From Promethearchaeota archaeon (GTDB taxonomy: Archaea > Asgardarchaeota > Lokiarchaeia > Sigyniarchaeales > SOKP01): 64,000 nucleotides of DNA. Within the stretch, counting starts at the first letter, position 1. Each line of letters begins with the position of its first letter. The notes beneath the pieces were generated by a model. It saw only the letters and a program-made list of their open reading frames with translations, had not been told where the DNA came from and made no database searches. Of this stretch, positions 1 to 42,992 are shown piece by piece. The DNA is taken from the NCBI GenBank assembly GCA_048938025.1, contig JBHLMP010000001.1, positions 1 through 64,000 of the forward strand, written 5' to 3'. Made by a program: the position numbers and the translations under genes.

Positions 1-287
1 TAGAGGTACTCCATGCCTAATTTCCTACCAAATTTTTTAGAAGCTAAGCAGGGAGTTCCACCTTCTCCTAGAGTAATATGAAAACCGGTTTCAATTGGAG
101 GGAAAGAAAATTTATAATCCCAAATATTATTTACAGTCTTTTGTAGGGGAAAATTCTCTCTTATTAAATCTATATCTGCCTGATACCAAAGTAATCCTTG
201 ACAATCTGGGCACTTATATTCTATAGATGATTTAAAATTGAACTTTTTTTTACATTCAATACATGTCAAAAGGAGAGGTTTATTGAT
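1..287 (-). CDS. thrC: Threonine synthase family protein, N-terminal part (runs off window start)
   Basis: Manual translation: LTCIECKKKF..YKCPDCQGLL..IWDY..ITLGEGGTPC, i.e. Zn ribbon plus the LGEGGTP motif. Start is ATC 287 (after GAGGTAA) or TTG 269. Not in ORF track. Confidence 0.8.
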   Translation of the reverse strand, partial: MNKPLLLTCIECKKKFNFKSSIEYKCPDCQGLLWYQADIDLIRENFPLQKTVNNIWDYKFSFPPIETGFHITLGEGGTPCLASKKFGRKLGMEYL

Positions 288-485
288 AAGATAATTACCT
301 CATTGATTATTTTTTAATTACTATAATTATTTATTGATCATTTTAATAATTAAAGTCTCTGGACATCGTTTCTGATAATTAAATATATAGACAATGAAAC
401 AAGAAAATTACGAAGGATCGTAAATTTTTTAAATTTTAGTTTCTTTTTTTTTTATAGTTTAAATATTAAAAAAATGTGATAAATA

Positions 486-1244
486 ATACTTATTTGGATT
501 CTTCTCTTTAGTTTTATGGGAAGCTTCGGATCAATATTATTAGCATTAGGATTTTTAAATTTAGGAAAAGTCTTACAAAAGAATTTAGTATCAATTTTAG
601 TATCATATGCAACTGGTACTTTAATTGCAGCTGCTTCTCTAGGAATGATTCCAACAGCAATATCAAAATCAGATGAACACCCACAATTAATTATGTCATA
701 CTTTTTGGGAGGAATACTTTTCTTCTTTATAGTTGAAAAATTAGTTATTTGGCGGCATTGTCACGACCAAGATTGTGTGGTGACAGGTGAAGCTGCGGGA
801 CCTATTATTTTAATAGGGGATGCCTTTCATAATTTAGTAGATGGAATAGTAATTGCTGCTTCTTTCTTAATTAATTTTTCAATAGGTATTGCTGTCAGTT
901 TATCTGTAATTGCACACGAAATTCCACAAGAAATAGGAGATTTAGCGATTTTAATTGATAAAAATTATACAAAAAAGAAAGCATTTATCTTCAATTCACT
1001 TTCGGGAGCAACCACTATCCCAGCAGCAATCATTGCATACTTTATTTTAGATGCGATATCAATTGCTATTCCATATGTATTAGCAATTTCTGCTGCTAGC
1101 TTTATTTACATTGCCCTTTCTGATTTAACACCGGCACTTCATCAAAAAATAGGATTTAAATATAGCCTTAGACAACTTCTTTTAATATTTGCTGGAATTT
1201 TAACTATGCTAATAATTTTTATGCTAAATACATTAATAGATTAA
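486..1244 (+). CDS. ZIP family metal (Zn/Mn/Fe) transporter, copy 1
   Basis: GDAFHNLVDG and HEIPQEIGD motifs, multiple TM helices. Frame is open upstream of ATG 516 to ATA 483/486, behind GTGA at 476-479. Confidence 0.9.
   Translation: MLIWILLFSFMGSFGSILLALGFLNLGKVLQKNLVSILVSYATGTLIAAASLGMIPTAISKSDEHPQLIMSYFLGGILFFFIVEKLVIWRHCHDQDCVVTGEAAGPIILIGDAFHNLVDGIVIAASFLINFSIGIAVSLSVIAHEIPQEIGDLAILIDKNYTKKKAFIFNSLSGATTIPAAIIAYFILDAISIAIPYVLAISAASFIYIALSDLTPALHQKIGFKYSLRQLLLIFAGILTMLIIFMLNTLID
1081..1132 (+). repeat. 52-bp exact direct repeat, copy 1 (copy 2 at 1860-1911)
   Basis: tagcaatttctgctgctagctttatttacattgccctttctgatttaacacc is identical in both ZIP paralogs. Confidence 0.9.
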
Positions 1245-1267
1245 AGCAAAAATAGAAGTGATAAAAG

Positions 1268-2023
1268 ATTCTGCAATGGATAATTTTATTCAGCATTTTA
1301 GGTAGTATAGTAGCAGTCGTTACAGCTGGAGGTTTTGTCTTTTTAGGTGATAAATATCAAAAAGCCCTAATACCAATTCTTATATCATTTGCTACAGGTG
1401 TTCTGCTGACAGTCGCATTTATAGGATTAATTCCTGAAGCAGTTGAAGAGGTTGGGGAACCTCATATCATTATGCCATATATCCTAGGCGGTATTATATT
1501 TTTCTTTATAATGGAAAAAATAATAATATGGAGAAACTGTCGAGATAAAACTTGTGAGGTTCATTCACAAGCTTCTGGACCATTAATACTTATAGGAGAT
1601 TCTTTCCATAATTTAATAGATGGTATTGTAATTGCTGCAGCATTTTTGTCAGAATTTTATATTGGAATTGTGGCAGGATTAACAATAATTATTCATGAAT
1701 TAGCACAGGAAACGGGAGATTTTGGCATCTTGCTTCATTCGGGGTATACAAAGAAGAAAGCGTTTATTTACAATACCATATCAAGTTCGACTACAATCCC
1801 TGCAGCAATTATATCTTACTTCATTTTAGATGATATTGAAGCTGCAATTCCTTTTTTACTAGCAATTTCTGCTGCTAGCTTTATTTACATTGCCCTTTCT
1901 GATTTAACACCAGATCTCCATCAACATTCAGACTTCAAGTATATTATCCGTCAATTAATAATAATGATTTTTGGTATTGTTTTAATGGTCTTACTATTAT
2001 CAATTGGAGGACATTCACATTAA
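1268..2023 (+). CDS. ZIP family metal transporter, copy 2
   Basis: GDSFHNLIDG and HELAQETGD motifs. Frame extends 68 codons upstream of ATG 1472 (ILQWIILFSILGS..ISFATGVLL..GLIPEA), collinear with copy 1. Start is ATT 1268 or CTG 1271. Confidence 0.9.
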   Translation: MLQWIILFSILGSIVAVVTAGGFVFLGDKYQKALIPILISFATGVLLTVAFIGLIPEAVEEVGEPHIIMPYILGGIIFFFIMEKIIIWRNCRDKTCEVHSQASGPLILIGDSFHNLIDGIVIAAAFLSEFYIGIVAGLTIIIHELAQETGDFGILLHSGYTKKKAFIYNTISSSTTIPAAIISYFILDDIEAAIPFLLAISAASFIYIALSDLTPDLHQHSDFKYIIRQLIIMIFGIVLMVLLLSIGGHSH

Positions 2024-2072
2024 CACTATTTTATCAAAACAAAAAAAGAGTAGTATAGAGTAGTGAAATATT

Positions 2073-2489
2073 ATGTTAGATTTGGATTATAAAGTACTAA
2101 AAATTTTATACCATAATAACAATTTATATAAAGTTGGAAATATAGCTAGAAAACTTAAGCTTCCTCATTCGACTATAGGAAGTTGTGTTAAAAGATTAGA
2201 AGAAAATGAGTATGTGATATATGAACGATATAAACCAGTTGTTCTATCAACGAAAGGAAAGGATCTTGCAACTGAATTAATTCGACATGCTCGGCTTCTT
2301 GAACTATTATTACATCATGAATTAGGAATAAAGCCTAAACAGGCTCATCAAGAAAGTGAAAAGTTCAATTTACTTTTCTCATGCGAAACAATAAATAAAA
2401 TTTGTGAAAAATATTCTCATCCAGAAGAATGCCCTTGTGGAGAGGAAATCTCAAATTCTTCAGATTGCTTTTGTGAAAAAAAAGTTTAA
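2073..2489 (+). CDS. DtxR/MntR family metal-dependent transcriptional regulator
   Basis: N-terminal wHTH, RHARLLELLL, HPEECPCGEEI (usual family motif is CPHG); follows the ZIP genes. Confidence 0.88.
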   Translation: MLDLDYKVLKILYHNNNLYKVGNIARKLKLPHSTIGSCVKRLEENEYVIYERYKPVVLSTKGKDLATELIRHARLLELLLHHELGIKPKQAHQESEKFNLLFSCETINKICEKYSHPEECPCGEEISNSSDCFCEKKV

Positions 2490-2493
2490 AATA

Positions 2494-2970: not shown

Positions 2971-2985
2971 TTTTATTCTTTTTTT

Positions 2986-3231: not shown

Positions 3232-3306
3232 TCGTAAAATTTTGATTTAAAATATAATAAAATAAGAAAAAAAATAATATAAGTGTTTTAATCATAGCTT
3301 TAAAAT

Positions 3307-4341: not shown

Positions 4342-4373
4342 TAACTTATACCTTCTTTCCCTTTTTTAAACAT

Positions 4374-4388
4374 TAATGATAATCATTA
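4374..4388. promoter_or_regulatory. Perfect 7-1-7 inverted repeat, candidate operator
   Basis: TAATGAT-A-ATCATTA between divergent genes. Confidence 0.4.
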
Positions 4389-5478: not shown

Positions 5479-5479
5479 A

Positions 5480-7468
5480 TCATAATTTTTTCAAATGCAG
5501 TGAGTAAATACTAATTTCTACAATTTCATTATTTTTTACTTCAAAACAACGAAATCCTGGAGGTTTATAACTTCTAAAATGCGAATTTACAGGACCAAGC
5601 GCTTGTGTTTGAAAGATGAAAGGCTTATTTACGTCAAACCAAATACTTAAATCCATTGGATCTTCGAATTTTTTGAAATAATCTCTATAATTATCCATAT
5701 AGACTTCACATGGAACATCAATAAAAATAGGAGCAAAAAGAAATCCGATACTTAGGCTTTCTGATTCTTTTTTAACTTCTTTTAACCTAAATTCTTTAAT
5801 GGTATGAGTATGTCCACATAAAATTAGATCAACTTTTCTTTTAATTATTTCATCAGATCCAATAAATATTTTTAATAGATCTGCCCAGTTATACATAATA
5901 GTTTCATACTTTAAATTAAAGAGAGTCTCTAATCTTGAACTTCCTAATTTTTTTTTCAAATTATCTTCATAGAAATCAGACCATTTAAGCTTTCTATATC
6001 TTAATTTCAATTTTTTTCTATATTTTCTTCTTTTAAGAATGCTTAAGTTTGGTGAAACAGGAGGTGTATGCATTACAATAATTATTTTTTCATCTCCACA
6101 TAATTTTATATATGCTCTTAATAAATCAATTTGATAATCTTTTAATCCTCTTGTACTTGGAGCACCTCTAATAAGATCATGAATATCCGCGATCGAATCT
6201 CTTCCTGTATCTAAGAATATGAAATTAAATTCACCAATTTTTATCTTAAAATTAAGAATAGGATTTAAATACGTAAAATAATCTTTTAAAAATCTACGTT
6301 TTGAGTATAAAGCATTAATATAACTAAAATCTTTGCTATCTTCATAATTTTTTACCTCTTTTTTGGTAACTCCAAAGATTTTATGAATATTACCAAATTT
6401 TATACTATAATGTCCTCTACGGTAATCATGGTTTCCTGGAATTGTAAATATGGGACATAGGATCTCTTTTTTATTAATATATTCTTTATCTGTTATTAAA
6501 AAAGGAGGTTTATTTAAGCCTTTATTCAAACCAAGTAAAATTTCAAATAAAACATGGAAATTGTTTTCATCATCTTCATAATTAGCTGGTTCAATATAAT
6601 CTACCAAATCACCACCAAATAGAATAAAATCAAATTTTTTATCATTTACAAAACTAATTAGCTTTCTTAGATGATAATTAAAATTAAATTTTGCTGTGAG
6701 GAGTTCTTTAAATCTATACAATTGAAATCCTTTTTTAAAATCAAAATCTCTCTCTAACATATTTTTCTTAGTTTTACTAGGAATTCTAATGCTTTTACTC
6801 AGCTTTTTGACCTTCTTTCTTGTTCTCTCTTTTAAAAATTTTGAAATAAAATCGTTCCTTCTGGCTATATGTAAATCGGTTGCATGAATAAATTTTAAAT
6901 TTTCTAAATCTTTATTAAATAAAGCAAGACTGTGAAAGTTGGTTATTTCTTCATTTCTATTAGGAATTCGATAAATTATATCAAACAAAATAAATCTTCT
7001 TTCAATTTTTTCAAATAATGCTTCGATACTTCTAATATTACTGATCTCAAATACAATCTTAAATAATTCATTTCTTTCTCCAAAGATTCCTTCTTCTTTT
7101 AAAATTGTATGCTGTAAATCAAAAAGAATACAATTTTCTTCTTTTAAGAGATTATTTTCATTAATGTTTTTATTTAAACTGGTTATTTCAATTAGTTTTA
7201 AAGGGTATCGCTCTCCCCTTCTTTCCAAGAATTTTCCCTCATCTTTTAAAATAGGTTGAATAAATGTATTAAGATGGAAATCCTTCCCAATTTCTGGAAT
7301 AGTTTGTGTTGGGATAGTTATAATTATTGCTTCAAAAATTACATTTTTAAGATATTTGCCTTCTTCATTTTTAAAATCTTCTAGATTTATTAGCTGAGGT
7401 TGTCCCAGATTAGGTTTGATTATTAAAGGAAAATCCCCTTTATTTAAGTCCAACTGAAATGTAGACAT
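5480..7468 (-). CDS. Calcineurin-like metallophosphoesterase with long insertions
   Basis: TDLH, GDLVD, GNHD, MHTPP, GHTH motifs. Confidence 0.85.
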   Translation of the reverse strand: MSTFQLDLNKGDFPLIIKPNLGQPQLINLEDFKNEEGKYLKNVIFEAIIITIPTQTIPEIGKDFHLNTFIQPILKDEGKFLERRGERYPLKLIEITSLNKNINENNLLKEENCILFDLQHTILKEEGIFGERNELFKIVFEISNIRSIEALFEKIERRFILFDIIYRIPNRNEEITNFHSLALFNKDLENLKFIHATDLHIARRNDFISKFLKERTRKKVKKLSKSIRIPSKTKKNMLERDFDFKKGFQLYRFKELLTAKFNFNYHLRKLISFVNDKKFDFILFGGDLVDYIEPANYEDDENNFHVLFEILLGLNKGLNKPPFLITDKEYINKKEILCPIFTIPGNHDYRRGHYSIKFGNIHKIFGVTKKEVKNYEDSKDFSYINALYSKRRFLKDYFTYLNPILNFKIKIGEFNFIFLDTGRDSIADIHDLIRGAPSTRGLKDYQIDLLRAYIKLCGDEKIIIVMHTPPVSPNLSILKRRKYRKKLKLRYRKLKWSDFYEDNLKKKLGSSRLETLFNLKYETIMYNWADLLKIFIGSDEIIKRKVDLILCGHTHTIKEFRLKEVKKESESLSIGFLFAPIFIDVPCEVYMDNYRDYFKKFEDPMDLSIWFDVNKPFIFQTQALGPVNSHFRSYKPPGFRCFEVKNNEIVEISIYSLHLKKL

Positions 7469-7520
7469 GTATAAATCTAGTAATTCTGTAATTATTAATC
7501 TAATTAATCATGATATTGAT

Positions 7521-7652
7521 AAAAAAAAGAGATTAGCAATACCTCCTATGTAAAAATAGTTTTAGGTGGGATTATTGTGTCTGTTCAAGCGCGAATCATA
7601 GATAAAGTATTATCGATATCTTGCAATCCGTCCAAAAGACACGAATAAACCC
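7521..7652 (-). ncRNA. Candidate structured non-coding RNA or leader, unclassified
   Basis: TTTAAA at 7682-7677; long terminal stem 7653-7637 / 7582-7567; second hairpin 7567-7541; T8 run 7528-7521. Confidence 0.5.
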
Positions 7653-7954
7653 ATATAATTGAGATTCAAATAACAATTTAAACTATAATCATTTAAAAAC
7701 TTAATGATTGACTTATGTGATTGATCAAAATAACTTAAAAAAAATCAAAAATTTAAATAGGTAAAAAATTGGTATATTTCTTAAGGAATGTGATTGTTAT
7801 CTTTGATAAGGAATATACTTATTTATATCAACACTTATTTGAACAAAAGAAACTTTGGGTTTCATATATAAACAAAAATTAAATTTTAAAATTCAAAATT
7901 CTAATTTTATATAAATAAAAAATAAATGAATCCAAACTATATAAAAAATATAAA

Positions 7955-9409
7955 ATGACAGACGAGTTTAAAGAGGAAGAAAAAAATAGTAAATCGGAAA
8001 AGGATACTGATAAAGTAGATAAGGAATTTTTATCGAAAGCTAAAGATTCAAGAGATATAATTGATAAAAAGTTGAGAACATTCGAGAATAGCATTGAGGA
8101 TATATCAGAAACAATAACTAATAGTGAAATAGAAGTAGAAAAAGAACTAGATAAAGAAGCGTTAGAAAAAATAAATAAAGAAATAAAAGAAGCTCAATTG
8201 AAACTTGATTCAATTTCAAAGAAAGTAGATGATAAAGAGGAATATCTTTCTGTTATAAAAGAAGAACTTACGACTCTTGAAGAAAAATACAATATTAAAA
8301 CTGAAGAAATGAATAATTTAGAAGAGAGATTAAATATTACAAAAGAAAGCAAAGAGAACTTAGAGGAAGAATATAAAGATCTTTTAAAAAATAATGAACA
8401 ACTAGTTAAAGCCTATGAAACTAGACAAGTTGATTTAATCGTCCTTACGGATTCTGTTAAAGAAAAGATAGCTTCTCAAGAAGATCTTCGAGCAAAAACT
8501 GCAAAATTAAATCAAGAAATTCAAGCAAATGAAGAAGAACTTGAAAAACAAAGAGAAGAGGCTGAAGCATTAGAAAAAAAGTTAAAAAGTCAGCATGCCG
8601 AAAATGAAACCCTGAAAGTCTCGATTGCAAAAAATAAAATTGAATTAGATCATTCAAATACAGAAATTGAGGCAAAAGAAGAAGAGAAAAATGTTTTAAC
8701 TGAACAACTTGAAAAAAAGGAACGAAGAATAAAGGAAATTGAACAAATCATTAAAGATCATCATGAAGGATTTCCTGAAATGGAAAAACAAAAACAAACT
8801 TACGAGGAACTACTTGCGAAATACAAGATTCAACTTACAGAGAAGCAGCAACAAATGATTGATATAGAATCTCGAATTCAAGATTTAAATGAGTCTATAG
8901 AGCCATTGAATGAGCAAATTAATGCTAAAGAAAGTTTAATAGGAGCAAATGAAAAGAGGATTGAAGATTTGAAGAGAGCTATTGAAAAATCCAATTTAGA
9001 ATATATTGAACGAGAAGAAAGACTTAATGCTCTAACAGAAAAATTAGAACATGTGGAATTGGACCATGAAAAATTAAAAAAGGCAAAAGAAGCTATTGAG
9101 AATAGCACTAATGATTCCCGAGTAATTCTTCAAAAGTTAAAAGAAGAATTAGAAAATCAAGAAAAAGAAATAAGAGATAAAGAAAGTCGTATTCATAGAT
9201 TAGAAGTTTTATCTGCGATTTATCGCGCATCTAAATTTTTCGGAGGAATAATATTAGGTTTGGGAATATTCTTTATTATTTGGGTTATTGGGGTCTCTAT
9301 TAACATAATAGATTTCGGTGATCTTAATACGCCTGTATTAATTATCTTTTTATTTATTGGTGGTATTTTGGCAATCCTATCTGGATTCTTCCACTTAGAA
9401 AAATCATAA
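7955..9409 (+). CDS. Long coiled-coil protein with two C-terminal TM helices
   Basis: About 400 aa of E/K-rich heptads followed by two hydrophobic segments; no Walker motifs. Confidence 0.8.
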   Translation: MTDEFKEEEKNSKSEKDTDKVDKEFLSKAKDSRDIIDKKLRTFENSIEDISETITNSEIEVEKELDKEALEKINKEIKEAQLKLDSISKKVDDKEEYLSVIKEELTTLEEKYNIKTEEMNNLEERLNITKESKENLEEEYKDLLKNNEQLVKAYETRQVDLIVLTDSVKEKIASQEDLRAKTAKLNQEIQANEEELEKQREEAEALEKKLKSQHAENETLKVSIAKNKIELDHSNTEIEAKEEEKNVLTEQLEKKERRIKEIEQIIKDHHEGFPEMEKQKQTYEELLAKYKIQLTEKQQQMIDIESRIQDLNESIEPLNEQINAKESLIGANEKRIEDLKRAIEKSNLEYIEREERLNALTEKLEHVELDHEKLKKAKEAIENSTNDSRVILQKLKEELENQEKEIRDKESRIHRLEVLSAIYRASKFFGGIILGLGIFFIIWVIGVSINIIDFGDLNTPVLIIFLFIGGILAILSGFFHLEKS

Positions 9410-19252: not shown

Positions 19253-19459
19253 AATAAATTTTCACGTTAGGCATTCTTAAAATATATATGTTAGAAGATT
19301 TTCTAATTTTAAATAATCAGAGTATGGATTTATAATTTTTCCAACTTTCAAATTGCCAAAATCTCAAAATTAAAACAATTTAGACTTGTGATATAATAAA
19401 AAATAAGAAAAAAAAGAGAAAAAATAAAAGCCGGCTTTATTATTTCTTCTCGAAAACCC

Positions 19460-19480
19460 AGTGAGATATTCATTCTCACT
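19460..19480 (-). terminator. Hairpin downstream of the ubiquitin-like gene
   Basis: AGTGAGA-7nt-TCTCACT perfect stem starting 12 nt after the stop. Confidence 0.4.
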
Positions 19481-19492
19481 CGACTGAAAAAA

Positions 19493-19744
19493 TTAACCTC
19501 CTGCTTGAGTTGCCATTACTGTAATTACGTCTTTTTTTGGATGAATTTGTGTTTTAGAAAATTTTAATTGATCTGGTAAAACTTTTCCCTTAAATATAAA
19601 TTGTATAGCTAAAATTGGATTTAACTTATATTCGCGTTGTACAGTTTTTTTAATTTCCGCTATTGAACTATTTGGATCTAACTCGATAAGCTTTATAGCT
19701 TGATCGGGTGGAACCCCTGTAAGTCTAAATCTATATTGAGTAAT
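19493..19744 (-). CDS. Ubiquitin-like protein, 83 aa, C-terminal QAGG (missed by ORF track; ATT start)
   Basis: (M)TQYRFRLTGVPPDQAIKLIELDPNSSIAEIKKTVQREYKLNPILAIQFIFKGKVLPDQLKFSKTQIHPKKDVITVMATQAGG*; GAAGTGA lies 6 nt before ATT. Confidence 0.88.
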   Translation of the reverse strand: MTQYRFRLTGVPPDQAIKLIELDPNSSIAEIKKTVQREYKLNPILAIQFIFKGKVLPDQLKFSKTQIHPKKDVITVMATQAGG

Positions 19745-19954
19745 TTTTAATCACTTCTATTTTTAGCAAAATTTGATTTAATATTAAAGTGATATAGGGT
19801 GAATTTTTAAATAAATATTTTTGTCCAATCTTATATACCTCAGTTTAAAATGCTCTAAAATGAGCTTTTTAAAGTAAATATTCTTACTATAGAGTAAAAA
19901 GCAATGAAATTAGGTCTTAAGTGAAAATATTTGCATTATCAATTAAATTAATAT

Positions 19955-20170
19955 TTAGTCTTCTTTAAACCGAAAGGGCTGTGGAGGAGTTCCTGGTGGT
20001 CCAGGCGGTCCAGGACGTTCAGGTGAAGGATAGGGTGTTGGACGAGGGTATGGTTGAAGTGGTTTTCTGTTCAATAATTTTTCTAAAGATAATAATCGAT
20101 TTTCCAAGTCATCTAATCTTTTTTCAATTTTTATAATTCTTTCTAATAAATTTGGGTTTTCTATTGTCAT
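19955..20170 (-). CDS. Small coiled-coil protein with proline-rich tail
   Basis: LLERIIKIEKRLDDLENRLLSLEK followed by PYPRPTPYPSPERPGPPGPPGTPPQP. Confidence 0.7.
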   Translation of the reverse strand: MTIENPNLLERIIKIEKRLDDLENRLLSLEKLLNRKPLQPYPRPTPYPSPERPGPPGPPGTPPQPFRFKED

Positions 20171-20443
20171 TTTTTTATAAAAAATTAGTAATTTTCAATA
20201 TTCGAATATGAGATGAATTTTTTAAGAATTTAAATAAATTTATTCCATTCTATAATTACTAATTAATTATTTAAAGGTTATTATCATTTGGAATAATTGC
20301 TTGATTAGCTCTTTTTATATATTATATTTCTATAAATTTTTAGGTATATACTAAATTCACTAAATTTTGTATATCATAATTTATTTAGTTCGAGTATAGG
20401 AAAAAAGTATAAATTTTTATATCTTCAATAATACTTTAATATT

Positions 20444-21550: not shown

Positions 21551-21564
21551 TAATGTAGTACAAT

Positions 21565-22506: not shown

Positions 22507-22668
22507 TGTTTTATTTGAACTTCTCTTCTTTTAATTTCAATAAAAGATTCCATAAAAATAAGTTCTCTGATTATAAAAAATTAAACCATAATCATTATAT
22601 ATAATAAAATTGAAATTTTATTATTTTTAAATTAAAAGAAAAATCTGAATTAAGAATAAAACGGTGAT

Positions 22669-24099
22669 GTGATCAAAGTGGTACAAAGTGAAATAGCTCC
22701 GGAAGAATTGGTGAAAACTTCTAAAAAAGTTTCCTTTGGATTAACCTCATTAGGAGCTCAAGTTGTTCATGGAGTCTTTCAAGCATCCCTTATAATTTAT
22801 TTTAGAGAAAAGATGCTACTTCCAGAAGTATATATCTTTTGGGCATTCATGTTTTTTGCAATTTGGAATGCTATAAATGATCCCTTGTTTGGTTGGCTTT
22901 CTGATAAAACAAAAACAAAATGGGGCAGGAGAATCCCTTATTTAGCGGTTTTTACACCGATAATGACAATTTCATTTATCTTTATTTGGTTAAGTCCAAC
23001 TAAAGGTGAGATAGGTGAGCTTGGTGTGTTCTTTTATATGCTAATATTAATTTGTATATATGATACAGCTTATACAGCAGCATTATTAGTATGGACAGCC
23101 TTAGGGCAGGAGTTAAGTATGGATCATAGAGAAAGAGCCAGTATTCAAGTTTATTCTTTAGCATTAGGGGTAATAGGGACACTAATGGCATTGATATTAC
23201 CATCTTTCTTTTTAGATCAACCAGAAAGAGAAGGATTCATTTATTTAACTATTATACTTGCTGCTTTGCAGTTTATAACTATGATGATAACAGCGTTAAC
23301 ATTAAAAGAGCGGTTAGAATTTTCTCATGTTGATGAGCCTATGGGCTTTTTTGATGCTTTTAAGAACACACTCAAAAGAAAATCCTTTTTAACTACAGTT
23401 TTTATGAATTTCTTTTTGATTTTCATACAATCAGTATTATTTGGCAATTTGTTTTTCTATACTTACTATGCAATTCCCGATTTCAATTCTGATTTGTTAT
23501 TGTTATTAGTTGTAGGTTTTACAGTAGCAGGAGTAGGCTTCGGGACTTATTACACTGTAAAAGTCAATGAAGAGAAGGGTGTCAAAACTGCAATGCTTCG
23601 TGCTATAATACTTCATGGTTTAGGTTTCTTGTTAGTTGGAATTTTACCTGGAATATTTGCTGTTGTTGGATTTTTTTTAGTAGGGATTGGCATCTATGCT
23701 GCTATGACTTTATTTAATGTAGCTTTTGCTGAAGTAATTGATGAAGATGAAGTGGATACTGGAAGAAGGCGTGAGGCTGCTATTATGGGAATTAATGCTC
23801 TAATAACTAAACCTGCAGAGTCTCTCGCGGGAGGTTTCATTGCAATCATGTTACTTTTGTTTAAATATACAGAACCAATAGAGGAAGTTCAACAACCTCA
23901 ATCTGATCTTACAATCCTAGGTATAAAATTAGCGATGGGAGTAATTCCTGCCATAGTAGCGTTCTTAGCGGCATTTATTTATAATATGAATCCACTATAC
24001 GGTCAACATTTAAATGAAATTAAAACTAAAATGTATAAAATGCATGAAGAAAAGAAAGAAAAATTACAAGAAATTCTTCCAAAACGAGCTAAAGAATAA
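22669..24099 (+). CDS. MFS/GPH family sugar:cation symporter
   Basis: WNAINDPLFGWLSDKTKTKWGRRIPY, DEDEVDTGRRRE. Confidence 0.9.
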   Translation: MIKVVQSEIAPEELVKTSKKVSFGLTSLGAQVVHGVFQASLIIYFREKMLLPEVYIFWAFMFFAIWNAINDPLFGWLSDKTKTKWGRRIPYLAVFTPIMTISFIFIWLSPTKGEIGELGVFFYMLILICIYDTAYTAALLVWTALGQELSMDHRERASIQVYSLALGVIGTLMALILPSFFLDQPEREGFIYLTIILAALQFITMMITALTLKERLEFSHVDEPMGFFDAFKNTLKRKSFLTTVFMNFFLIFIQSVLFGNLFFYTYYAIPDFNSDLLLLLVVGFTVAGVGFGTYYTVKVNEEKGVKTAMLRAIILHGLGFLLVGILPGIFAVVGFFLVGIGIYAAMTLFNVAFAEVIDEDEVDTGRRREAAIMGINALITKPAESLAGGFIAIMLLLFKYTEPIEEVQQPQSDLTILGIKLAMGVIPAIVAFLAAFIYNMNPLYGQHLNEIKTKMYKMHEEKKEKLQEILPKRAKE

Positions 24100-25317
24100 T
24101 TAAAGGAGATTGTATTTTTGAGCAATCTCTATAAAACTTTGTGTAAAGTACTTTATCTGTTCCCAACTAAGACCATAAGTGTTAAATTTCATCTCTTTAG
24201 AGATTCCAGGGAGTAATCCAATAATCCCCCTTTCTTTAAATTCATCTCTTAGAAAAAATCCCTTTCGTGGATGACTTTCAGCAACTTTTGCAAAACCTTC
24301 AGTTTTTATATTAGTTAATGGATGAATTTTTGGTAATTTTCCAAGAATTTTAATTCCCATAACATTCCTAATATTATCTATTACATAATTGGCTTTTTTA
24401 GATTCTTCATCGACGACTTCCTTTTGAGCTCTTTTTACAATTGTAGGAAAACTTGCCATTAAAGTAATTAAAGGAGAACCATAGACAGGAGGACAACCCA
24501 TCACAGTACATATTTTGCTTGGAAAAGACTTAGAAGAAATATTTCCTTGGATTTTTGAATTAACCATGATATCATCATAAAACTCATTATTAAATCCTAA
24601 AATGCCAATTGGACCTGAAGCAGCCATAGATTTATGGCCACTGCATGCTATAAAATCAGCTGAATATTTTTTGCAATCAATTGGTAAAATACCACCAGAA
24701 TAAGCAGCATTTAAAAGAAAAGGGATATTAAACTTTTGGCATATTTCTCCGATAGGCTTAGGATCATTATAATTTCCATATTTGTAATCGACATGAGTTA
24801 ATACGACTAATAAAGGTACCACACCATCTTCTTTTTGAACTTTTTTAATAATTTTTTCATAATCAATAGCTTTAATATTAAATTCTGGATATCCAGAGTT
24901 TGGCACTTCACTAACTTTCAAATTATTTGATTCAATAGCTAAATAGGTCGTGTAATGAGCCAGACTATCAATTACAACAGTTTTACGTTTTGGATATTTT
25001 TTTGTTAAAGCCTCCATTACCAAACGTTTTGATTCTCTAGCTGCAGCAGTAAGCATAACGTTTTCTATATTTAGAAATTTTGCCATATCTTTTAAAAATT
25101 CTACTACAGGTGGATTTTCTATTTGATCAATCCTACCTTTTAGGCAATTATCACATAAACTATACCCATCTCCATAAGCTATTAACGACTTAAAAGCTTC
25201 AGGGGTTAACATTCCTCCCCGCTGGATAGGGTGAATATTTATGAATTCTTCATTTATAGTTCTGCTAAGATCTGAGTATTTTTGTACCAATTCATTATTA
25301 TATTCTAAATTACTCAT
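24100..25317 (-). CDS. pscS: O-phosphoseryl-tRNA:Cys-tRNA synthase (SepCysS)
   Basis: PIQRGGMLT, GDGYSLCDNC, AHYTT, THVD, SGHKSMAASGPIG. Confidence 0.93.
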   Translation of the reverse strand: MSNLEYNNELVQKYSDLSRTINEEFINIHPIQRGGMLTPEAFKSLIAYGDGYSLCDNCLKGRIDQIENPPVVEFLKDMAKFLNIENVMLTAAARESKRLVMEALTKKYPKRKTVVIDSLAHYTTYLAIESNNLKVSEVPNSGYPEFNIKAIDYEKIIKKVQKEDGVVPLLVVLTHVDYKYGNYNDPKPIGEICQKFNIPFLLNAAYSGGILPIDCKKYSADFIACSGHKSMAASGPIGILGFNNEFYDDIMVNSKIQGNISSKSFPSKICTVMGCPPVYGSPLITLMASFPTIVKRAQKEVVDEESKKANYVIDNIRNVMGIKILGKLPKIHPLTNIKTEGFAKVAESHPRKGFFLRDEFKERGIIGLLPGISKEMKFNTYGLSWEQIKYFTQSFIEIAQKYNLL

Positions 25318-25393
25318 TTTTCTTCTTCTGTTTTTGCTTTACGAAAATTATTATATTTTATAAAATTAAGATGAAATTAATAAATTATTTGGG

Positions 25394-27082
25394 TTGGTTA
25401 ATTTGATAGAAGATTTACAGTTCATCCACGAAAGCGAGTTTTGGTATATAAGTTCATTCTTAAATACTTCTGAAATAAATGGTCATCAAAAAAGCAAAGA
25501 AATTGAAAATCTTGTAAAAACAACATTTGAAAATTTAACTGAAGATGACATTTATCGTAAAGAACTAAAGAATGAAATTTTTGAAATGGTAAAGAATGTA
25601 ACCATCAACTGTAAATGGGTACCTTACTTAGATAACTTCCCTTATAAAGATGAGAACTCTGATCGAGAATTTAATACCTTAGGATATTTCCAATTTGACG
25701 TTGAGTATTATAAAGAAAATTTTTCTAAAAAAGAATCTTTAAGACCCATCTTAATCCAGCAAATTCCCTATATTCTCCATAATAAGTTAAAAGAATATAG
25801 TAAAAAACCTGAAAATAGAGGATTTTACTTAGATACAGAAAGTCCTATATATGTTTTTGTCACATCAAATAAAACCAAACCTAAAGAAATAGAATGGACT
25901 CAAAACAATATTAAACAATATAAAAAAGTGATTGCATATTGGAATGAAATATATTCAGGAGCATGGGAGGATTATTCAGAGATATTATATGATAGACGTG
26001 TTAAAAATAATCTTTCAAATCGACTAAGCGAATTACATTTTATCAGAAGAAATTCTGGATTTATCTATATGGCAGAAGAGAATTATAAAAACTTTTTTGA
26101 ATCATATATGAAGGAATTTGTACTAGAGCCGACTCCAAAAATGAGAGCTGTATTATTTGCTTTAAGATCAATAAGCGAGTCATTAGACTTATTATTTTTA
26201 AAAGCCCAATCTGAAGGATTTATAGATATAAATACTATTGAGAAGAAAATAAGGAATTTAAGATTTCTGAGAGGTTTGATCCAAACTAAATTAAGCTTAA
26301 TTTATGCTGAGTTGGATTATAATCGAAGGCAACATTATACACGAGTTTTAAAACATTTATTAAACGAATTTGAAATAGATTCTATTATCAGTAGATTAAA
26401 TGAAAAATTTAATATTATTTATGATTCAATGCAAAGCATCTACGTCAAAAAGAATGAGGAAGTTCAAAAAAGAACAGAGAAAGGGCTTAATTTATTAAAT
26501 TTACTTTTTGGTGCTGGAATATTAGCAGATTTGGGACAAGTGATAATGCTTGCTTTTACACTACAAGAAGGAGCCTCAACAACTATTTTCCTGAATGGCA
26601 TTATTGCTTTTATTATAACCAGTATTTTAATTATCACAATAGCTTTCTACATCTATATGAGATTACAAGTAAAAGAAACAGGTATTGGAAAAACTGTTGA
26701 TGCAGTTATAGAGGTTGGCAAGAATGAAGTTGTTTTAATCAAAAGAAAGTATCCTCCTTTCCAAGATTTTTATGCTCTTCCAGGTGGTTTCATTGAGAAA
26801 GGTGAAAAAGCTAAAGAAGCTGTGATTAGAGAAGTTAAAGAAGAAACTAATTTGGATGTAAGAATTATTAAGAAAATCGGTTTATATAATAAAGAAGGTC
26901 GAGATCCGCGTGGAAAGATTCATAGTACTGCTTTTAAATGCCAAATAATTGAAGATGCTTCTATTATGAAGAGTGGAGATGATTCAAAAGAGGTGGAGTT
27001 GATCTCGAAAGAAAATTTAAAAAGAATTGATTTAGCATTTGACCATGAACAAATATTAAAAGATGCTAATGTTCTAGATTAA
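25394..27082 (+). CDS. Membrane protein: helical N-domain, two TM helices, C-terminal NUDIX hydrolase
   Basis: Intact Nudix box GGFIEKGEKAKEAVIREVKEETNL, RDPR, LAFDH; two hydrophobic helices at about aa 365-425. Confidence 0.85.
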   Translation: MVNLIEDLQFIHESEFWYISSFLNTSEINGHQKSKEIENLVKTTFENLTEDDIYRKELKNEIFEMVKNVTINCKWVPYLDNFPYKDENSDREFNTLGYFQFDVEYYKENFSKKESLRPILIQQIPYILHNKLKEYSKKPENRGFYLDTESPIYVFVTSNKTKPKEIEWTQNNIKQYKKVIAYWNEIYSGAWEDYSEILYDRRVKNNLSNRLSELHFIRRNSGFIYMAEENYKNFFESYMKEFVLEPTPKMRAVLFALRSISESLDLLFLKAQSEGFIDINTIEKKIRNLRFLRGLIQTKLSLIYAELDYNRRQHYTRVLKHLLNEFEIDSIISRLNEKFNIIYDSMQSIYVKKNEEVQKRTEKGLNLLNLLFGAGILADLGQVIMLAFTLQEGASTTIFLNGIIAFIITSILIITIAFYIYMRLQVKETGIGKTVDAVIEVGKNEVVLIKRKYPPFQDFYALPGGFIEKGEKAKEAVIREVKEETNLDVRIIKKIGLYNKEGRDPRGKIHSTAFKCQIIEDASIMKSGDDSKEVELISKENLKRIDLAFDHEQILKDANVLD

Positions 27083-27167
27083 GTTTCTCTTCCTTTTTTA
27101 CTTATTTTCATAAGCTTATTATTTATAGCTAAATTCTTCAAATGTAGAAAAATTTAGGTATAAAATT

Positions 27168-27716
27168 ATGCCAATTATAATGCCAAGCCCAAGAACGGGC
27201 AAAAAACCCCAAATTCATGAAACTGCCTTTATTGCTCCCACAGCAGTAATAATTGGAGATGTTACAATAGGAGAAAATTCAAATATCTGGTTTGGAGCTG
27301 TATTAAGAGGAGATTGGGGAACAATTAAAATTGGAAAAAATACAAGTATTCAAGAGAATGTAACAATCCATCTTGAACAAGATAGTTCAGTATTTATAGG
27401 TGATGATGTCATTGTTGGACATCATGCGATGATTCATGGGCCAACAGAAATAGAAAATGGATGCGTTGTTGGAATTGGTGCAAATGTCTTACATAATTCA
27501 AAACTGGGTGAAGGAGTACAAGTTGGTGCTGGAGCGGTATTATTAAATAAAGAATTTCCATCAAGATGTTTAGTTGTTGGAATTCCTGCTGATATTAAGA
27601 AACACTTACCAGAAACAGGGAAGTTAGTGGGGGAAAGAACTTCTAAAGATTATGTACAAAACGGGAGAGATTTTAAAGCTTTTTTTAAAAAAAATCCAAA
27701 ATTTGCAAACTACTAA
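27168..27716 (+). CDS. Gamma-carbonic anhydrase family (hexapeptide repeat) protein
   Basis: AFIAPTAVIIGDV, WFGAVLRGD, IQEN..H, VGHHAMIHG. Confidence 0.92.
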   Translation: MPIIMPSPRTGKKPQIHETAFIAPTAVIIGDVTIGENSNIWFGAVLRGDWGTIKIGKNTSIQENVTIHLEQDSSVFIGDDVIVGHHAMIHGPTEIENGCVVGIGANVLHNSKLGEGVQVGAGAVLLNKEFPSRCLVVGIPADIKKHLPETGKLVGERTSKDYVQNGRDFKAFFKKNPKFANY

Positions 27717-27739
27717 CTATTTTTCTGTTTTCTTTTCTT

Positions 27740-28474
27740 CTATTTTGAGCAAATGCAATTTTCATTTTTAATGATATCTATTATATTAAATCTTAAATCT
27801 ACTAGATTTACCATTAATAGTTTATTTTCCAAATTTGGAAGTCCTAATGCTGTTTTTATAACTTCAAGAGCTTCTAACGTTCCTAATATGCCAGGAGTTA
27901 CACCTATTACTGGTAAAGGTCCTTCTTCTGGAGAAATTTTCTCTGGTTCAGAAAAAACACATTGATAACAAGCAGTCTTTTTTGGATTTATTGTAATGAT
28001 TTGGCCATAAAAATCTTTTATTCCAGCAATTATACACTTCAGATTATTTTGTATGGCAATTTTATTAACTAAAAACTTAGTTTGGAAATTATCAGAACAA
28101 TCTATAATAAAATCATGTCCTTTAACGTATTTTCTTATCGAATCTTCCTCTACATATTCTTTATAAGTATGTATTTGAACTTCAGAATTTAGATTAGATA
28201 AAACCGTCTTAGCTGATTCTGCTTTATCTTTACCTATTTGATTTTCATTATAAAGAATTTGTCTTTGAAGGTTTGAAATATCTAAAACATCATTGTCAAT
28301 TATGGTTAATTTTTTTATCCCAGCAGCAGTAAGATACATAGAACAGGGTGAGCCAAGGCCTCCGGCTCCAATTTGCAATACACTAATATTCGATATCTTT
28401 TTTTGCCCCTCCTCACCAATTAATGGAGAGATAATTTGTCTTGAATACCTCTCTTTTTGCTTTTCATTTAAAAT
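27740..28474 (-). CDS. ThiF/MoeB/HesA family E1-like adenylyltransferase
   Basis: Extended upstream to ATT 28474: LNEKQKERYSRQII..IGEEGQKKI, GAGGLG, SNLQRQ, DCSDN, CYQC. Confidence 0.9.
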   Translation of the reverse strand: MLNEKQKERYSRQIISPLIGEEGQKKISNISVLQIGAGGLGSPCSMYLTAAGIKKLTIIDNDVLDISNLQRQILYNENQIGKDKAESAKTVLSNLNSEVQIHTYKEYVEEDSIRKYVKGHDFIIDCSDNFQTKFLVNKIAIQNNLKCIIAGIKDFYGQIITINPKKTACYQCVFSEPEKISPEEGPLPVIGVTPGILGTLEALEVIKTALGLPNLENKLLMVNLVDLRFNIIDIIKNENCICSK

Positions 28475-28480
28475 TGAATT

Positions 28481-28855
28481 TCACCCACTTAAAATTTTTT
28501 TAATATTTTTAATAGCTTCTTCAATTTCTATGAAAAAAATACCTAAATTTGTATCTATATCTAACATAGAAACGAGAATTACTTGATTATCAATACTCAT
28601 GACTATAATTTGGTAATTATTAAATTCTACTGTTATATTATTTATGGTATCACTTCCTAAAGTTAAAGCAGCCGTTTCAATGGCACCAAACATGGTAGCC
28701 GCCATTGCCCCAAATTTTCTCTTGTCAACATCTATAGGTAATATTGAAGTAATTAATAAGCCATTTCGATTTGCAATTGCTATACCTATAATATCACTCA
28801 TAGTTTCTAATTTTTCCAATTCCTTATTAAGGCTTTCAATTTTTGAGTTATTCAT
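28481..28855 (-). CDS. Roadblock/LC7 domain protein
   Basis: GIAIANRNGLLITS, FGAMAATMFGA, ITVE, NLG pattern. Confidence 0.9.
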   Translation of the reverse strand: MNNSKIESLNKELEKLETMSDIIGIAIANRNGLLITSILPIDVDKRKFGAMAATMFGAIETAALTLGSDTINNITVEFNNYQIIVMSIDNQVILVSMLDIDTNLGIFFIEIEEAIKNIKKILSG

Positions 28856-36099: not shown

Positions 36100-36118
36100 T
36101 TTTTTTATTTAATCTATC

Positions 36119-39974: not shown

Positions 39975-39998
39975 GAGGAAGGGTAAGTTAAAATAATA

Positions 39999-40643: not shown

Positions 40644-40751
40644 AAATGGATATTAGAGAAAGCCTATAATCACAATAAAATTTTATTATATTTTGTACTA
40701 GGATATATTCAACCTTGTAAGTTTACCCGACAAGTTCCTGTTGCATAAAGA

Positions 40752-42014
40752 TTATTCAATATCTATGCCATATTTTTTAAAGATTTTCAATAATTCATCG
40801 CTTGCTAATCTCTTTAAAATATCTTTTAAAGGAGCTAAAACTTCATCTTTTTGTGCTTCTCTATTTTTACTAATTCTATCTTTAACTTCAAATCCACTTT
40901 GCGCCCATGAATATTCATCGTTGAAAGTAAACCATATATCTTTATATGCTCCTTCTTGACCACCATCTCCAGCTAAAGGTTTTTTTTCAATAGAAACTTC
41001 AGGATCCTGCAAATAACACCAATCAAGCACCACCCACTCTAGTTTCCTTTTAGAATCATCTCGATCAGCAAGATAAATGCAATAAGCATGACCACCTAGC
41101 TCGGATTCTGATGGGGCGACTACGGGATCAGCCATAACTTGAGCAGCGCAAACCTTGACCCTCCAAGACGGTATTCCTGCATTAATCAACAAGCTTGCAA
41201 TTAAAATTGCACCATCCTCACAATCTCCTATTTCTGATTGGATTGATTCAAAAGGGAATTGCCAAAACTCAGGACAGTCAGATGTAAGATCATCATACTT
41301 ATATCTTAGAAAATTGCAAACAAAATTCTGTATTGCCAAGGCCGTTTCATTAGGGGTTTCTCTTCTCAGTCCAATTTGAGTGATAACATGCCATAAGATT
41401 GCATCATCTTTTTTTAAAAATGTCTTGACATCGACATCAATTTCCTTCTTGTACAATTCTCCTCTTAATGCTCTTCCTGTGTATATAATTGGAGCGGTCT
41501 CCCATTTTAGGTTCCAGTAATCCGGTCCATAATCCCCATAATCTCCCTTAAATTCCTCGATGGGAACATATTCAATGGGTGCGACCGGTTGTGGTGCTGG
41601 TTCTTTTTTAGGGATTGTCTTTTTTTGTACGTCAGCTAAATCTTTTGATTTTTCAATCCAGCTTTCTATATCCTTTAGGATTGGAATTTTGGTCAAAATC
41701 TTAGGATTTTCCTTTTTTAATTGCTTTAACCTTTCTAAAATGCTTTTAGAATTCCTATGAGCAAGTTCTTTAACCGAATCAATACCAATCAAATTTAAGG
41801 CATTTGCAATTTTCGGATTAACACCCTCGATTCTCATTAAATCTGCATGTTCTTGCCATGTATCAATTAGTTGTGGAGGAATTCCTGTCTTGCTAGCTAA
41901 CTTTTTGATTTGACTACTAGTAAGTGGTAGCAGATCTTCAACTTTACTAATACCTTCTTTTTTTAGTAGCTTCGCATGTTCATCTTCTAAACTAATAATT
42001 TCAATAATATTCAA
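40752..42014 (-). CDS. DUF4332 (HhH) domain fused to a transglutaminase-like domain
   Basis: WQEHADLMRIEGV..GIDSVKELA; GDCEDGAIL, GHAY, LDWC triad. Confidence 0.82.
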   Translation of the reverse strand: MNIIEIISLEDEHAKLLKKEGISKVEDLLPLTSSQIKKLASKTGIPPQLIDTWQEHADLMRIEGVNPKIANALNLIGIDSVKELAHRNSKSILERLKQLKKENPKILTKIPILKDIESWIEKSKDLADVQKKTIPKKEPAPQPVAPIEYVPIEEFKGDYGDYGPDYWNLKWETAPIIYTGRALRGELYKKEIDVDVKTFLKKDDAILWHVITQIGLRRETPNETALAIQNFVCNFLRYKYDDLTSDCPEFWQFPFESIQSEIGDCEDGAILIASLLINAGIPSWRVKVCAAQVMADPVVAPSESELGGHAYCIYLADRDDSKRKLEWVVLDWCYLQDPEVSIEKKPLAGDGGQEGAYKDIWFTFNDEYSWAQSGFEVKDRISKNREAQKDEVLAPLKDILKRLASDELLKIFKKYGIDIE

Positions 42015-42168
42015 ATTTTTAACCTTTAAATTTAAATTAAAATCAACTTGATTAGTAAAAATATTGCACTCTTTTTTTATAAGATTTTACATAAAATTGC
42101 AGACTAAATAATGATTTATAAACCTAATATAACTAAAAATTAAATGATTTAACTTACACAAATTCTAT

Positions 42169-42825
42169 TTAAGTTGGCAGAAGAAAATCCTTTTGTACTA
42201 AATAAAAAATCGCATTAGCTATTTCATTATTTTCAAAATCTAAAGACTTCATTGCTTCGATAAATAACTCAGAAAGAAAAATTTTTCCTTTAGTTTTATT
42301 AGCTATAGATTTAGCTAATTCAAATACTTGTTTAGTATTTGAGGAAATTTTTTTGCCTTTCGAAAGACCAATTTTATGAGGATAAGTAAGGCTTAGATGA
42401 AAAACCTCTTCAACTATTTGGTCTATATTTTCTTTACTTTTTTTATTCTTATGAAAAATTGAGATATCTCCTTGAAAATGATTATATAAGTCTTTAATTT
42501 CTTGACCATATTGCTCTTCAAAAAGGTTACAAAAAAAACCAAGAAGTTCTCTTGTAAAGGGAATGGGCTTTTCATTAAGTATTAAACTTACCCAGATCAT
42601 CTTACCAGCTCTTGTAATTAAATATTTTCCTTTCAGTGTAGCTTGTTCAATTCTTCCTTCATCAATAGGAAAATCTAATATCTCATATTGGATCGTGTCT
42701 CGAAATAAGTCAATTATTTCCGGCTCAAATTCTCCTGCGGTTGTATAATAGATAATTCCTTTTGATTCCTTATGAGTAATAATGAGATATTCAATCGATA
42801 GCGCAATTGTAAAATATTCGGAAAT
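42169..42825 (-). CDS. Longin-like domain protein with probable C-terminal winged helix
   Basis: Frame is open 80 codons upstream of ATG 42600 (SIEYLIITHKESKGIIYY...); FEEQY..FQGDISIF. Start is ATT 42831, 42825 or 42807. Confidence 0.6.
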   Translation of the reverse strand: MSEYFTIALSIEYLIITHKESKGIIYYTTAGEFEPEIIDLFRDTIQYEILDFPIDEGRIEQATLKGKYLITRAGKMIWVSLILNEKPIPFTRELLGFFCNLFEEQYGQEIKDLYNHFQGDISIFHKNKKSKENIDQIVEEVFHLSLTYPHKIGLSKGKKISSNTKQVFELAKSIANKTKGKIFLSELFIEAMKSLDFENNEIANAIFYLVQKDFLLPT

Positions 42826-42992
42826 TTGAATCTCGACCTTTCATTTTAAATCCTTTGTGTAATCTAATAGCGATTCATTTATTTATAATTTACTTATAAT
42901 TTGTTTAATATCTCTCAGTTTAGCAAAACATTTACGATCTTATAAACATAAGAAAATGGTACTATGATCTTATAAGGGTTAAGAATAATGTG

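Follow-up and report, generated by a model that had tools for sequence, protein, structure and literature searches.

Six candidate ATH starts in the window

The window analysed here is the whole stretch C33:1-64000, that is, the first 64,000 nucleotides of a contig from a metagenome-assembled genome (MAG, labelled G000) of a Loki-type Asgard class, and the feature under study is a set of six of its genes whose translation appears to begin at ATT, ATA or ATC (collectively ATH) instead of at one of the canonical codons ATG, GTG or TTG. The MAG measures 3.52 Mb in 88 contigs, with 29.3% G+C, and its completeness and contamination are estimated at 96.7% and 5.1%, respectively. Its genus and family are denoted g1 and f1, while f2 and f4-f7 stand for other families. 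A sequence-only reading of the window had pointed out that four genes (the ZIP-family transporters ZIP1 and ZIP2, a ubiquitin-like gene and a ThiF/MoeB-type gene) carry an ATH codon 6 nt after GTGA, taken as the core of a Shine-Dalgarno (SD) sequence, that thrC and a longin-like gene present weaker versions of the arrangement, and that genes with an ordinary ATG share its geometry. When coordinates and geometry were read again, all six positions were found to be correct (Table 1), including the two weaker ones, which are backed by orthologues, and the same was true of the comparators, with ATG 2073 at GTGA+6 and ATG 16748, 39468 and 51989 at GTGA+7. A GTGA core complementary to the 16S tail is thus found 6 or 7 nt ahead of ATH and ATG starts alike.

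Table 1. Coordinates of the six ATH-started genes of the window and of the SD sequences preceding them.
Feature	Position	Strand	Remarks
thrC, threonine synthase N-terminal part	3..287	-	start ATC 287; runs off contig end
SD GAGGT of thrC	297..301	-	9 nt before ATC 287
SD core GTGA of ZIP1	476..479	+	6 nt before ATA 486
ZIP-family transporter 1 (ZIP1)	486..1244	+	proposed start ATA 486; Pfam Zip
SD core GTGA of ZIP2	1258..1261	+	6 nt before ATT 1268
ZIP-family transporter 2 (ZIP2)	1268..2023	+	start ATT 1268
Ubiquitin-like protein, 83 aa, C-terminal GG	19493..19744	-	start ATT 19744
SD core GTGA of ubiquitin-like gene	19751..19754	-	6 nt before ATT 19744
ThiF/MoeB-type E1-like enzyme	27740..28474	-	start ATT 28474
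SD GGGTGA of ThiF/MoeB	28481..28486	-	6 nt before ATT 28474
Longin-like protein	42169..42831	-	start ATT 42831 or ATT 42825
Weak SD-like AGGT of longin-like gene	42836..42839	-	4 nt before ATT 42831, 10 nt before ATT 42825

In ThiF, ZIP2, the ubiquitin-like gene and the longin-like gene there is no usable canonical start, their frames opening 0-2 codons upstream of the ATH codon. The longin-like frame opens at TGA 42843-42841, and in ZIP1 it is the TGA within GTGA that serves as the in-frame upstream stop. The GTGA+6 spacing is therefore partly self-selected, because by geometry the TGA inside GTGA is always an in-frame stop upstream of a codon placed there. Downstream, the next canonical codon is found after 10 codons in ZIP1, 68 in ZIP2, 32 in ThiF (a TTG, already past the RYSRQ motif), 6 in thrC, 77 in the longin-like gene and 76 in the ubiquitin-like gene, where it is the only one in the 83-codon frame. 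ZIP1 has a second ATA at 483, which might be an alternative start, and its N-terminus, ILIWILLFS, agrees with that of ZIP2 from the first codon onward. Neither the thrC fragment nor the longin-like protein matches a Pfam profile, and both names are the labels given by the sequence-only reading.

That standard gene callers would truncate or omit such genes was borne out by comparison with a list of the open reading frames of the window restricted to ATG, GTG and TTG starts. In this list, ThiF measures 212 aa instead of 244 (32 aa short), ZIP2 183 aa instead of 251 (68 aa short) and the longin-like protein 143 aa instead of about 220 (77 aa short), and the ubiquitin-like gene is missing altogether. 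The latter gene, whose product ends in GG, and that of ThiF/MoeB are placed 8 kb apart and are both ATT-started, and this neighbourhood is kept on the same contigs in several relatives (G011 C166, G016 C34 and G002 C5, for instance).

Start codons of the orthologues

The sequence-only reading had proposed to compare start codons across orthologues. This was done gene by gene in 40 relatives (24 of genus g1 and 16 from three sister families) by recording the codon aligned to residue 1 of the G000 protein, and it showed that the ATH codon aligns with the N-terminal start codon across relatives. In the case of ThiF, all 21 full-length same-genus loci have ATH at this position (16 ATT, 4 ATC and 1 ATA), behind (G)GTGA and one or two codons after the frame opens, and the aligned codon of five sister-family orthologues is ATG. 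The ubiquitin-like gene shows 17 ATT, 1 ATA and 2 ATG within the genus (n=20), and ATG in all 10 outgroup loci. ZIP2 presents 12 ATT, 1 ATC, 6 ATG and 1 unclear case (n=20, same genus), while the ZIP1-type paralogues of relatives have ATA or ATT, the ATT copies standing behind GTGA+6; in one of these copies (L216) the reading frame opens precisely at the ATT. The longin-like gene has ATT at the codon aligned to 42831 in 13 of 13 same-genus orthologues, and in one of them (L184) the frame opens exactly there. For thrC, the codon aligned to ATC 287 is ATG in three orthologues (L304, L308 and L312) and ATT or ATC in most of the 15 further loci listed, among which is G000; the GAGGT+9 geometry recurs, and the TTG found in G000 at 269, 6 codons downstream, is missing from most orthologues. 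In five relatives (L302, L303, L307, L309 and L315) an in-frame TAA directly follows the GAGGT of the thrC SD, so that the SD overlaps the end of an upstream open frame, and the ATH codon comes 6 nt later.

A seventh gene, outside the window, encodes the ribosomal protein L21e, and it behaves in a similar manner: within the genus (n=23) the aligned codon is ATA in 10 loci, ATC in 6, ATT in 4, TTG in 2 and CTG in 1, and in the sister family (n=7) it is ATG in 4 and TTG in 3. The CTG belongs to locus L009 (G011), where it follows AGGTG. Therefore, for L21e, ThiF, the ubiquitin-like gene, ZIP2 and thrC, the ATH codon aligns with the codon for the N-terminal Met of orthologues (ATG or TTG elsewhere), and ATG and ATH interchange at one aligned codon even within the genus. 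As many of the frames open only 0-2 codons before the ATH, behind TGA, TAA or TAG, no room is left for an alternative start. The ThiF and ubiquitin-like proteins retain 74-96% identity within the genus, denoting clear purifying selection.

Protein-family profiles lead to the same codons, since the Pfam match of an ATH-started protein sets in at its first residue or close to it. The ThiF profile (positions 1-236) covers residues 10-240 of a protein whose first canonical codon would be residue 33, and equivalent matches were obtained for L21e (residues 2-95, profile 2-98), NifU_N in IscU (residues 2-126, profile 2-125), CbiM (residues 2-212, profile 1-204), HpaB_N (residues 3-266, profile 1-270) and ubiquitin (residues 17-80, profile 11-71). 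The CbiM case is a telling one because, in this family, the N-terminal Met-His binds metal.

Frequency of ATH starts across the genome

A scan of G000 for the SD core, the spacing and an ATH codon, which had also been proposed as a check, showed ATH to be enriched at SD distance. The scan took each position from which a frame ran for 100 codons or more, provided that no canonical codon intervened between it and the preceding stop, and recorded the codon found at SD distance. At GGTG+6..8 (n=249) these codons included ATG (42), TTG (25), GTG (11), ATT (32), ATA (24) and ATC (12), and the six most enriched codons in relation to off-spacings (n=349) were precisely ATG, TTG, ATA, ATC, ATT and GTG, the seventh, TGC, reaching p = 0.048 uncorrected. 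Among non-canonical codons, the share of ATH was 41% at GGTG+6..8 vs 9% off-spacing (Fisher p = 4e-16). The enrichment is not merely a consequence of the spacing selection mentioned above, because it persists where there is no coupling to an in-frame TGA: the ATH share was 8/15 at GGTG+6 and 22/69 at GGTG+8, for a background of ~0.13. Likewise, with an [A/C/T]TGA+6 control the ATH share was 42/116 vs 92/633. After subtraction of the background, about 55-60 GGTG-led ATH starts are estimated vs 78 with a canonical codon, so that ATH accounts for roughly two in five strongly SD-led starts. CTG was slightly over-represented at SD distance in G000 (3/201 vs 2/786, and separately 2 vs 0) and may be another occasional near-cognate start.

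The 66 GTGA-led ATH cases of G000 include the genes for L21e, IscU, CbiM, GpmA, a small GTPase, an Old-Yellow-Enzyme-type reductase and an HpaB-family enzyme; ATH starts were found as well in the gene for the initiation factor aIF1 of G000, discussed below, and in that for uS10 of a same-genus genome. SD-led starts are a minority here, with an SD-like 4-mer before 23% of the first canonical starts vs 11% of internal ATGs, in agreement with reviews that describe SD use as rare in Loki-type archaea (PMC12993045, PMC7531240).

An estimate independent of the SD was obtained by homology, comparing G000 with a 400-kb sample of the same-genus genome G006 (211 orthologue pairs) and counting genes in which 8 or more residues were conserved ahead of the first canonical codon. 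A conserved N-terminus of this kind was found in 11 G000 genes and 16 G006 genes; most of them have ATH there, and about half an SD-like 4-mer. A few of these rows are false, one being a shadow frame, another a truncated CoA-transferase and a third a gene without ATH, and the resulting frequency, on the order of 5% of genes or somewhat less, is therefore to be read as an upper estimate. A looser flagging, for which a narrow margin was enough, was overwhelmed by antisense shadow frames and by similarity in the SD region and was replaced by this stricter version, and the use of the ribosomal-protein operon as an unbiased gene set was dropped, as the L2 gene is not in a large operon in this genome.

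Distribution within the class

The N-terminus of the ubiquitin-like protein was searched with degenerate patterns in 161 genomes of the class (134 of f1 other than G000 and 27 outside f1); related genomes being non-independent, these class-wide counts are descriptive and carry no statistical tests. The ATH form was present in G000 and in 45 of the 134 other f1 genomes, 51 of which gave an ATG form, and in none of the 27 genomes of other families, 10 of which gave ATG. By genus, ATH and ATG forms were found, respectively, in 33 and 12 of 53 g1 genomes, 7 and 0 of 10 in g21, 3 and 21 of 42 in g22, 1 and 4 of 5 in g12, and 1 and 5 of 7 in g23.

De novo SD tests on 400-kb samples of relatives had little power, and with this limitation they revealed no enrichment of ATH in two f2 genomes (3/19 vs 7/33 and 3/28 vs 6/35) or in one f4 genome (21/511 vs 23/754). 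The f2 genome G038 nonetheless contains two or three convincing ATH cases in its 400 kb: a TsaA-like gene with AGGTGA+6+ATT, whose next canonical codon comes 111 codons later, a GTPase in which ATA aligns with the Met of the G000 orthologue, and a ribbon-helix-helix-like gene in which ATT aligns with a TTG of G000. The trait is thus quantitative, concentrated in family f1 and not strictly confined to it.

The start codon of aIF1

The gene encoding aIF1 (SUI1) is found outside the window, at G000:C24:2575-2904 (-) (locus L238 1462-1791), and has no canonical start. The TGA of AAGGTTGTGA opens its frame, which then reads AAA GAG AGT ATT AAA GAC GAC GAC ATT TGT, the first Met being found only near the C-terminus. 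An ATT or ATC 9 nt behind GTGA was observed in sequences from g1, g21, g22 and g16, and in G023 a single codon of the open frame precedes the ATT. Among the ten f1 sequences with a readable start, eight have ATT or ATC without any canonical codon. In the class-wide search, the N-terminal pattern of aIF1 was present in G000 and in 76 of the 134 other f1 genomes (41 of 53 in g1, 25 of 42 in g22, 5 of 10 in g21, 3 of 6 in g15, and also in g13 and g14), and each f1 genome matching it had an ATT or ATC row. The eight rows of the pattern with ATG, GTG, TTG, TTA or GTC were all located away from the SUI1 hit of the same genome; six ATH rows were in turn cross-checked against the SUI1 hits. Outside f1, aIF1 starts with TTG (two f2 and two f5 genomes) or ATG (two f2 and one f4), and in one f6 and one f7 genome only ATA or ATT is found upstream of the zinc-knuckle.

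The gene of the proofreading factor itself thus carries a conserved suboptimal start, and, because within the genus this start does not flip between ATG and ATT as those of other genes do, its pattern suggests that the weak codon of aIF1 is under selection. According to PMC4705826, the aIF1 of S. solfataricus makes the 30S complex reject an AUU mRNA, and in bacteria the AUU start of infC is used for autoregulation. An account of a non-canonical aIF1 start was not found in the literature searched, PMC6237735 included.

The 16S tail and the initiator tRNA

The sequence-only reading had spoken of a GTGA-type SD core positioning these starts. The core is real and is placed at start distance, but it is not special: it corresponds to the 3' part of the ordinary archaeal SD, GGAGGTGATC, a consensus quoted in PMC7531240. 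The tail of the 16S rRNA, the inspection of which had been suggested, turned out to be an ordinary one, ...CTGCGGCTGGATCACCTCCA, in G023 (same genus) and in G038 (f2), and the archaeal SD pairs with the tail ...GGATCACCTCC as read in a same-genus and a sister-family genome.

Initiator tRNA genes, recognised by the AGCGGGG acceptor start and an anticodon stem with three G:C pairs, carry a CAU anticodon in genomes of the genus (G084, G011), of further f1 genera and of f2. Those of g1, g21 and g15 (L345 in G084, L346 in G011, L347 in G074 and L327 in G058) contain inserts just after the anticodon arm or inside the T-arm, while in g12, g14 and f2 they are free of inserts. When the initiator anticodon arm was searched for throughout the class with any first anticodon base allowed, no variant initiator tRNA came to light: the 20 non-CAT hits read (with G, T or A first) all proved to be coding sequence, L316 and L325 among them, and a control with the reversed pattern gave hits in a similar number of genomes.

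Interpretation and alternatives

At SD distance, ATH marks the conserved N-termini of many genes, both genome-wide and across the family. On the strength of the sequence comparisons, a few per cent of the ordinary genes almost certainly start at ATH behind a ribosome-binding site, and in this organism, as in its family, ATT, ATA and ATC are with high probability true initiation codons. The orthologues and the genome-wide enrichment thus support the relaxed start-codon selection that the sequence-only reading had attributed to this lineage, at a frequency far above that of E. coli, where one or two ATH-started genes are known.

The most likely mechanism is near-cognate initiation under a relaxed aIF1 proofreading. 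The GGAGGTGA-type SD would pair with the normal 3' tail of the 16S rRNA and set in the P site the codon found 6-8 nt downstream, as the geometry and the tail itself indicate. The ordinary initiator tRNA, with its CAU anticodon, would then pair with AUH at two positions, the first and the second, and tolerate a mismatched third base, and the product would begin with Met. This tolerance may derive from aIF1 proofreading being set low in the lineage. Because ATG and ATH swap freely at one codon between species, ATH starts behave as weaker ATG alleles, which could have accumulated in an AT-rich genome (29% GC) as AT-biased mutation converted ATG to ATH wherever a good SD compensates for it. In addition, a feedback of the infC type can be envisaged, in which little aIF1 would lead to more initiation at AUU and thus to more aIF1, holding stringency at the point where AUH starts work. 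That the translation of aIF1 from a fixed AUU or AUC creates in these Loki-type Asgard archaea an IF3-like loop, keeping stringency low enough for everyday AUH starts, is a tentative proposal, and we regard it as a real possibility that falls somewhat short of an even chance.

A number of observations weigh against this interpretation. Among the sequencing runs listed for 19400-28600 of the window, none was of RNA. The 16S gene was not found in the G000 MAG, and no recognisable initiator tRNA gene was detected in it by aragorn, Rfam tRNA hits or motif searches, only 25-32 tRNAs being detected in total, so that both were read from relatives. An alignment of 21 aIF1 sequences disclosed no substitution that could be linked to a lower stringency, and the tie between the aIF1 start codon and genome-wide permissiveness is one that we infer. 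The lack of a usable canonical start is less clear for ZIP1, thrC and three L21e loci; in two of these, an in-frame TTG stands two codons ahead of the aligned start, and in the third the SD contains a GTG. In the low-power SD test, the same-genus genome G006 gave 10/36 vs 7/52 (p = 0.11 and 0.08), and in the pooled sister families (G038, G032 and G033; equally of low power) ATH was not enriched (27/558 vs 36/822); the limit of the trait is not sharp, because the cases of G038 exist despite this lack of enrichment.

Relaxation of aIF1 would be unnecessary if ATH were read cognately, either by a second initiator-like tRNA (with a GAU, UAU or AAU anticodon) or by an initiator tRNA modified at C34, a modification known in mitochondrial tRNA-Met. 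The use of all three ATH codons and their free interchange would fit such a reading, and an extra tRNA could have been missed because intron-rich tRNA genes, such as those of this group, are poorly detected, base modifications being in turn invisible in DNA. Nevertheless, the initiator tRNA genes found in the genus and the family carry CAU, all 20 non-CAT hits read were coding sequence and the reversed-pattern control behaved similarly, which makes cognate reading an unlikely explanation.

It is much less probable still that these genes start at the next downstream ATG, GTG or TTG, the upstream frame being untranslated and the ubiquitin-like frame not being a gene. A shorter protein is conceivable for ZIP1 (ATG 10 codons downstream), for thrC of G000 (TTG 6 codons downstream) and for the small GTPase (a canonical codon, translated as V, 16 codons downstream). 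However, the upstream parts show protein-level conservation between genera and align with the N-termini of ATG-started orthologues, 20-50 positions would be missing from the beginning of the Pfam matches, no more than a few residues would be left of the ubiquitin-like gene, and the thrC TTG is missing in most orthologues.

Assembly or sequencing errors concealing an ATG, or the decay of the genes into pseudogenes, might come to mind for a MAG with an estimated contamination of 5% in which one CoA-transferase gene looks N-terminally truncated, but this explanation is scarcely credible: for each gene the same codons are present in 13-21 genomes that were assembled separately, and ATT, ATC and ATA replace one another synonymously; contigs of four studies covering 19400-28600 have no other letter at 19742-19744 or 28472-28474 among the matches listed; and the genes are under the purifying selection described above, with 74-96% identity within the genus. 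Recoding from an upstream or out-of-frame canonical start (by programmed frameshift, stop-codon readthrough or RNA editing), which might be prompted by the out-of-frame ATG overlapping the stop before the longin-like frame of G000 (ATGA, 42844) and by the ATG-TGA-TAA run ahead of ZIP1, can be set aside with equal assurance, since those ATGs are not present in orthologues (that at 42844 is absent from all 13 same-genus longin-like orthologues, which speaks against a frameshift in this gene), the upstream stops vary among TGA, TAA and TAG, with two in a row at some loci, the SD is at start-codon distance from the ATH and not from any upstream codon, and no conserved upstream start with a shift site was found.

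Relation to known systems

Non-AUG starts of the ATH kind are known in bacteria (infC) and in organelles, and pcnB is another bacterial gene with an SD-led AUU start. The closest likeness is to the infC gene of E. coli, in which, according to PMC4705826, a near-cognate AUH is also found at SD distance, a proofreading factor discriminates against AUH and the gene of this very factor carries the weak codon (IF3 there, aIF1 with ATT or ATC here). The archaeal factor would differ in being aIF1, with a SUI1 fold, instead of IF3, and the feedback is, in this case, a proposal. The extent of use is also different, with about 5% of genes (an upper estimate) and roughly two in five GGTG-led starts, housekeeping genes included.

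In eukaryotes, Ivanov et al. (2010) reportedly described the autoregulation of eIF1 through a poor start context. The likeness lies in that a homologous factor governs the discrimination of non-AUG codons and has its own mRNA endowed with a suboptimal start, although there the start is an AUG whose Kozak context is weak, on an mRNA that is scanned, and here it is a non-AUG codon behind an SD. PMC3326321 states that eukaryotic near-cognate initiation is set by eIF1 and eIF5 levels and that eIF1 is autoregulated via its poor start context.

For archaea, one review names only AUG, GUG and UUG as start codons (PMC7531240), and ribosome profiling in Haloferax has seen near-cognate sites that were set aside (PMC7261190). 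No description of ATH starts in Asgard archaea was found in the literature searched, and the near-cognate sites of Haloferax may bear on their rarity among archaea. Other archaea share the same machinery (aIF1, aIF1A, aIF2, and SD or leaderless mRNAs), and what is different here is the addition of AUU, AUA and AUC as regular, conserved starts of genes of the annotated type. Mitochondrial and Mycoplasma-type codes have ATT, ATC and ATA in their start sets, and table 11 of NCBI also lists ATH. These are likewise AT-rich genomes accepting AUH starts, but in the present case no change in sense codons was seen, the CAU anticodon is standard and the translation apparatus is not reduced.

From a practical point of view, gene callers limited to ATG, GTG and TTG truncate or drop ThiF, two ZIP transporters, the longin-like gene, thrC and the ubiquitin-like gene in the window alone, and the same annotation loss affects L21e, IscU, CbiM, GpmA and aIF1 outside it, as well as uS10 in a same-genus genome. 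Asgard surveys of ubiquitin-like, longin and small-GTPase proteins depend on gene calls of this kind. The lineage also offers a natural archaeal case in which an initiation machinery of the eukaryotic type would accept AUH codons, with a homologue of eIF1 that appears to be wired like bacterial IF3, and in which the evolution of start-codon stringency becomes directly testable in cultured relatives. If the aIF1 loop were true, a stringency tunable through the eIF1 homologue would predate eukaryotes and would have arisen independently of bacterial infC, and the published proteomes of f1 would be systematically incomplete, lacking true N-termini and small genes at the level of a few per cent, parts of the ubiquitin system among them.

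Other observations

Two genes of G000 that surfaced in the comparison with G006 do not follow the pattern described above. A membrane protein on contig C53 (+, 0-based 21935-22454) has an N-terminus, GGNTFDYKDFHDG..., that is conserved upstream of the first canonical codon (orthologue L099 in G006), and its frame opens TAA GGT GGT AAT, with neither an ATH nor a canonical codon, so that its start is unexplained. A CoA-transferase-like gene on contig C40 (+, 0-based 6963-8118) is without the N-terminal part present in its G006 orthologue; its frame opens late, with no plausible start, and either a genuine truncation or a fault of assembly may account for this. Within the window, the stretch 42985-43150 (-) resembles a tRNA gene with a TAA anticodon arm, probably for Leu, split by intron-like inserts, and it falls outside the only tRNA hits on contig C33, those at C33:70440-70497 and C33:78894-78966.

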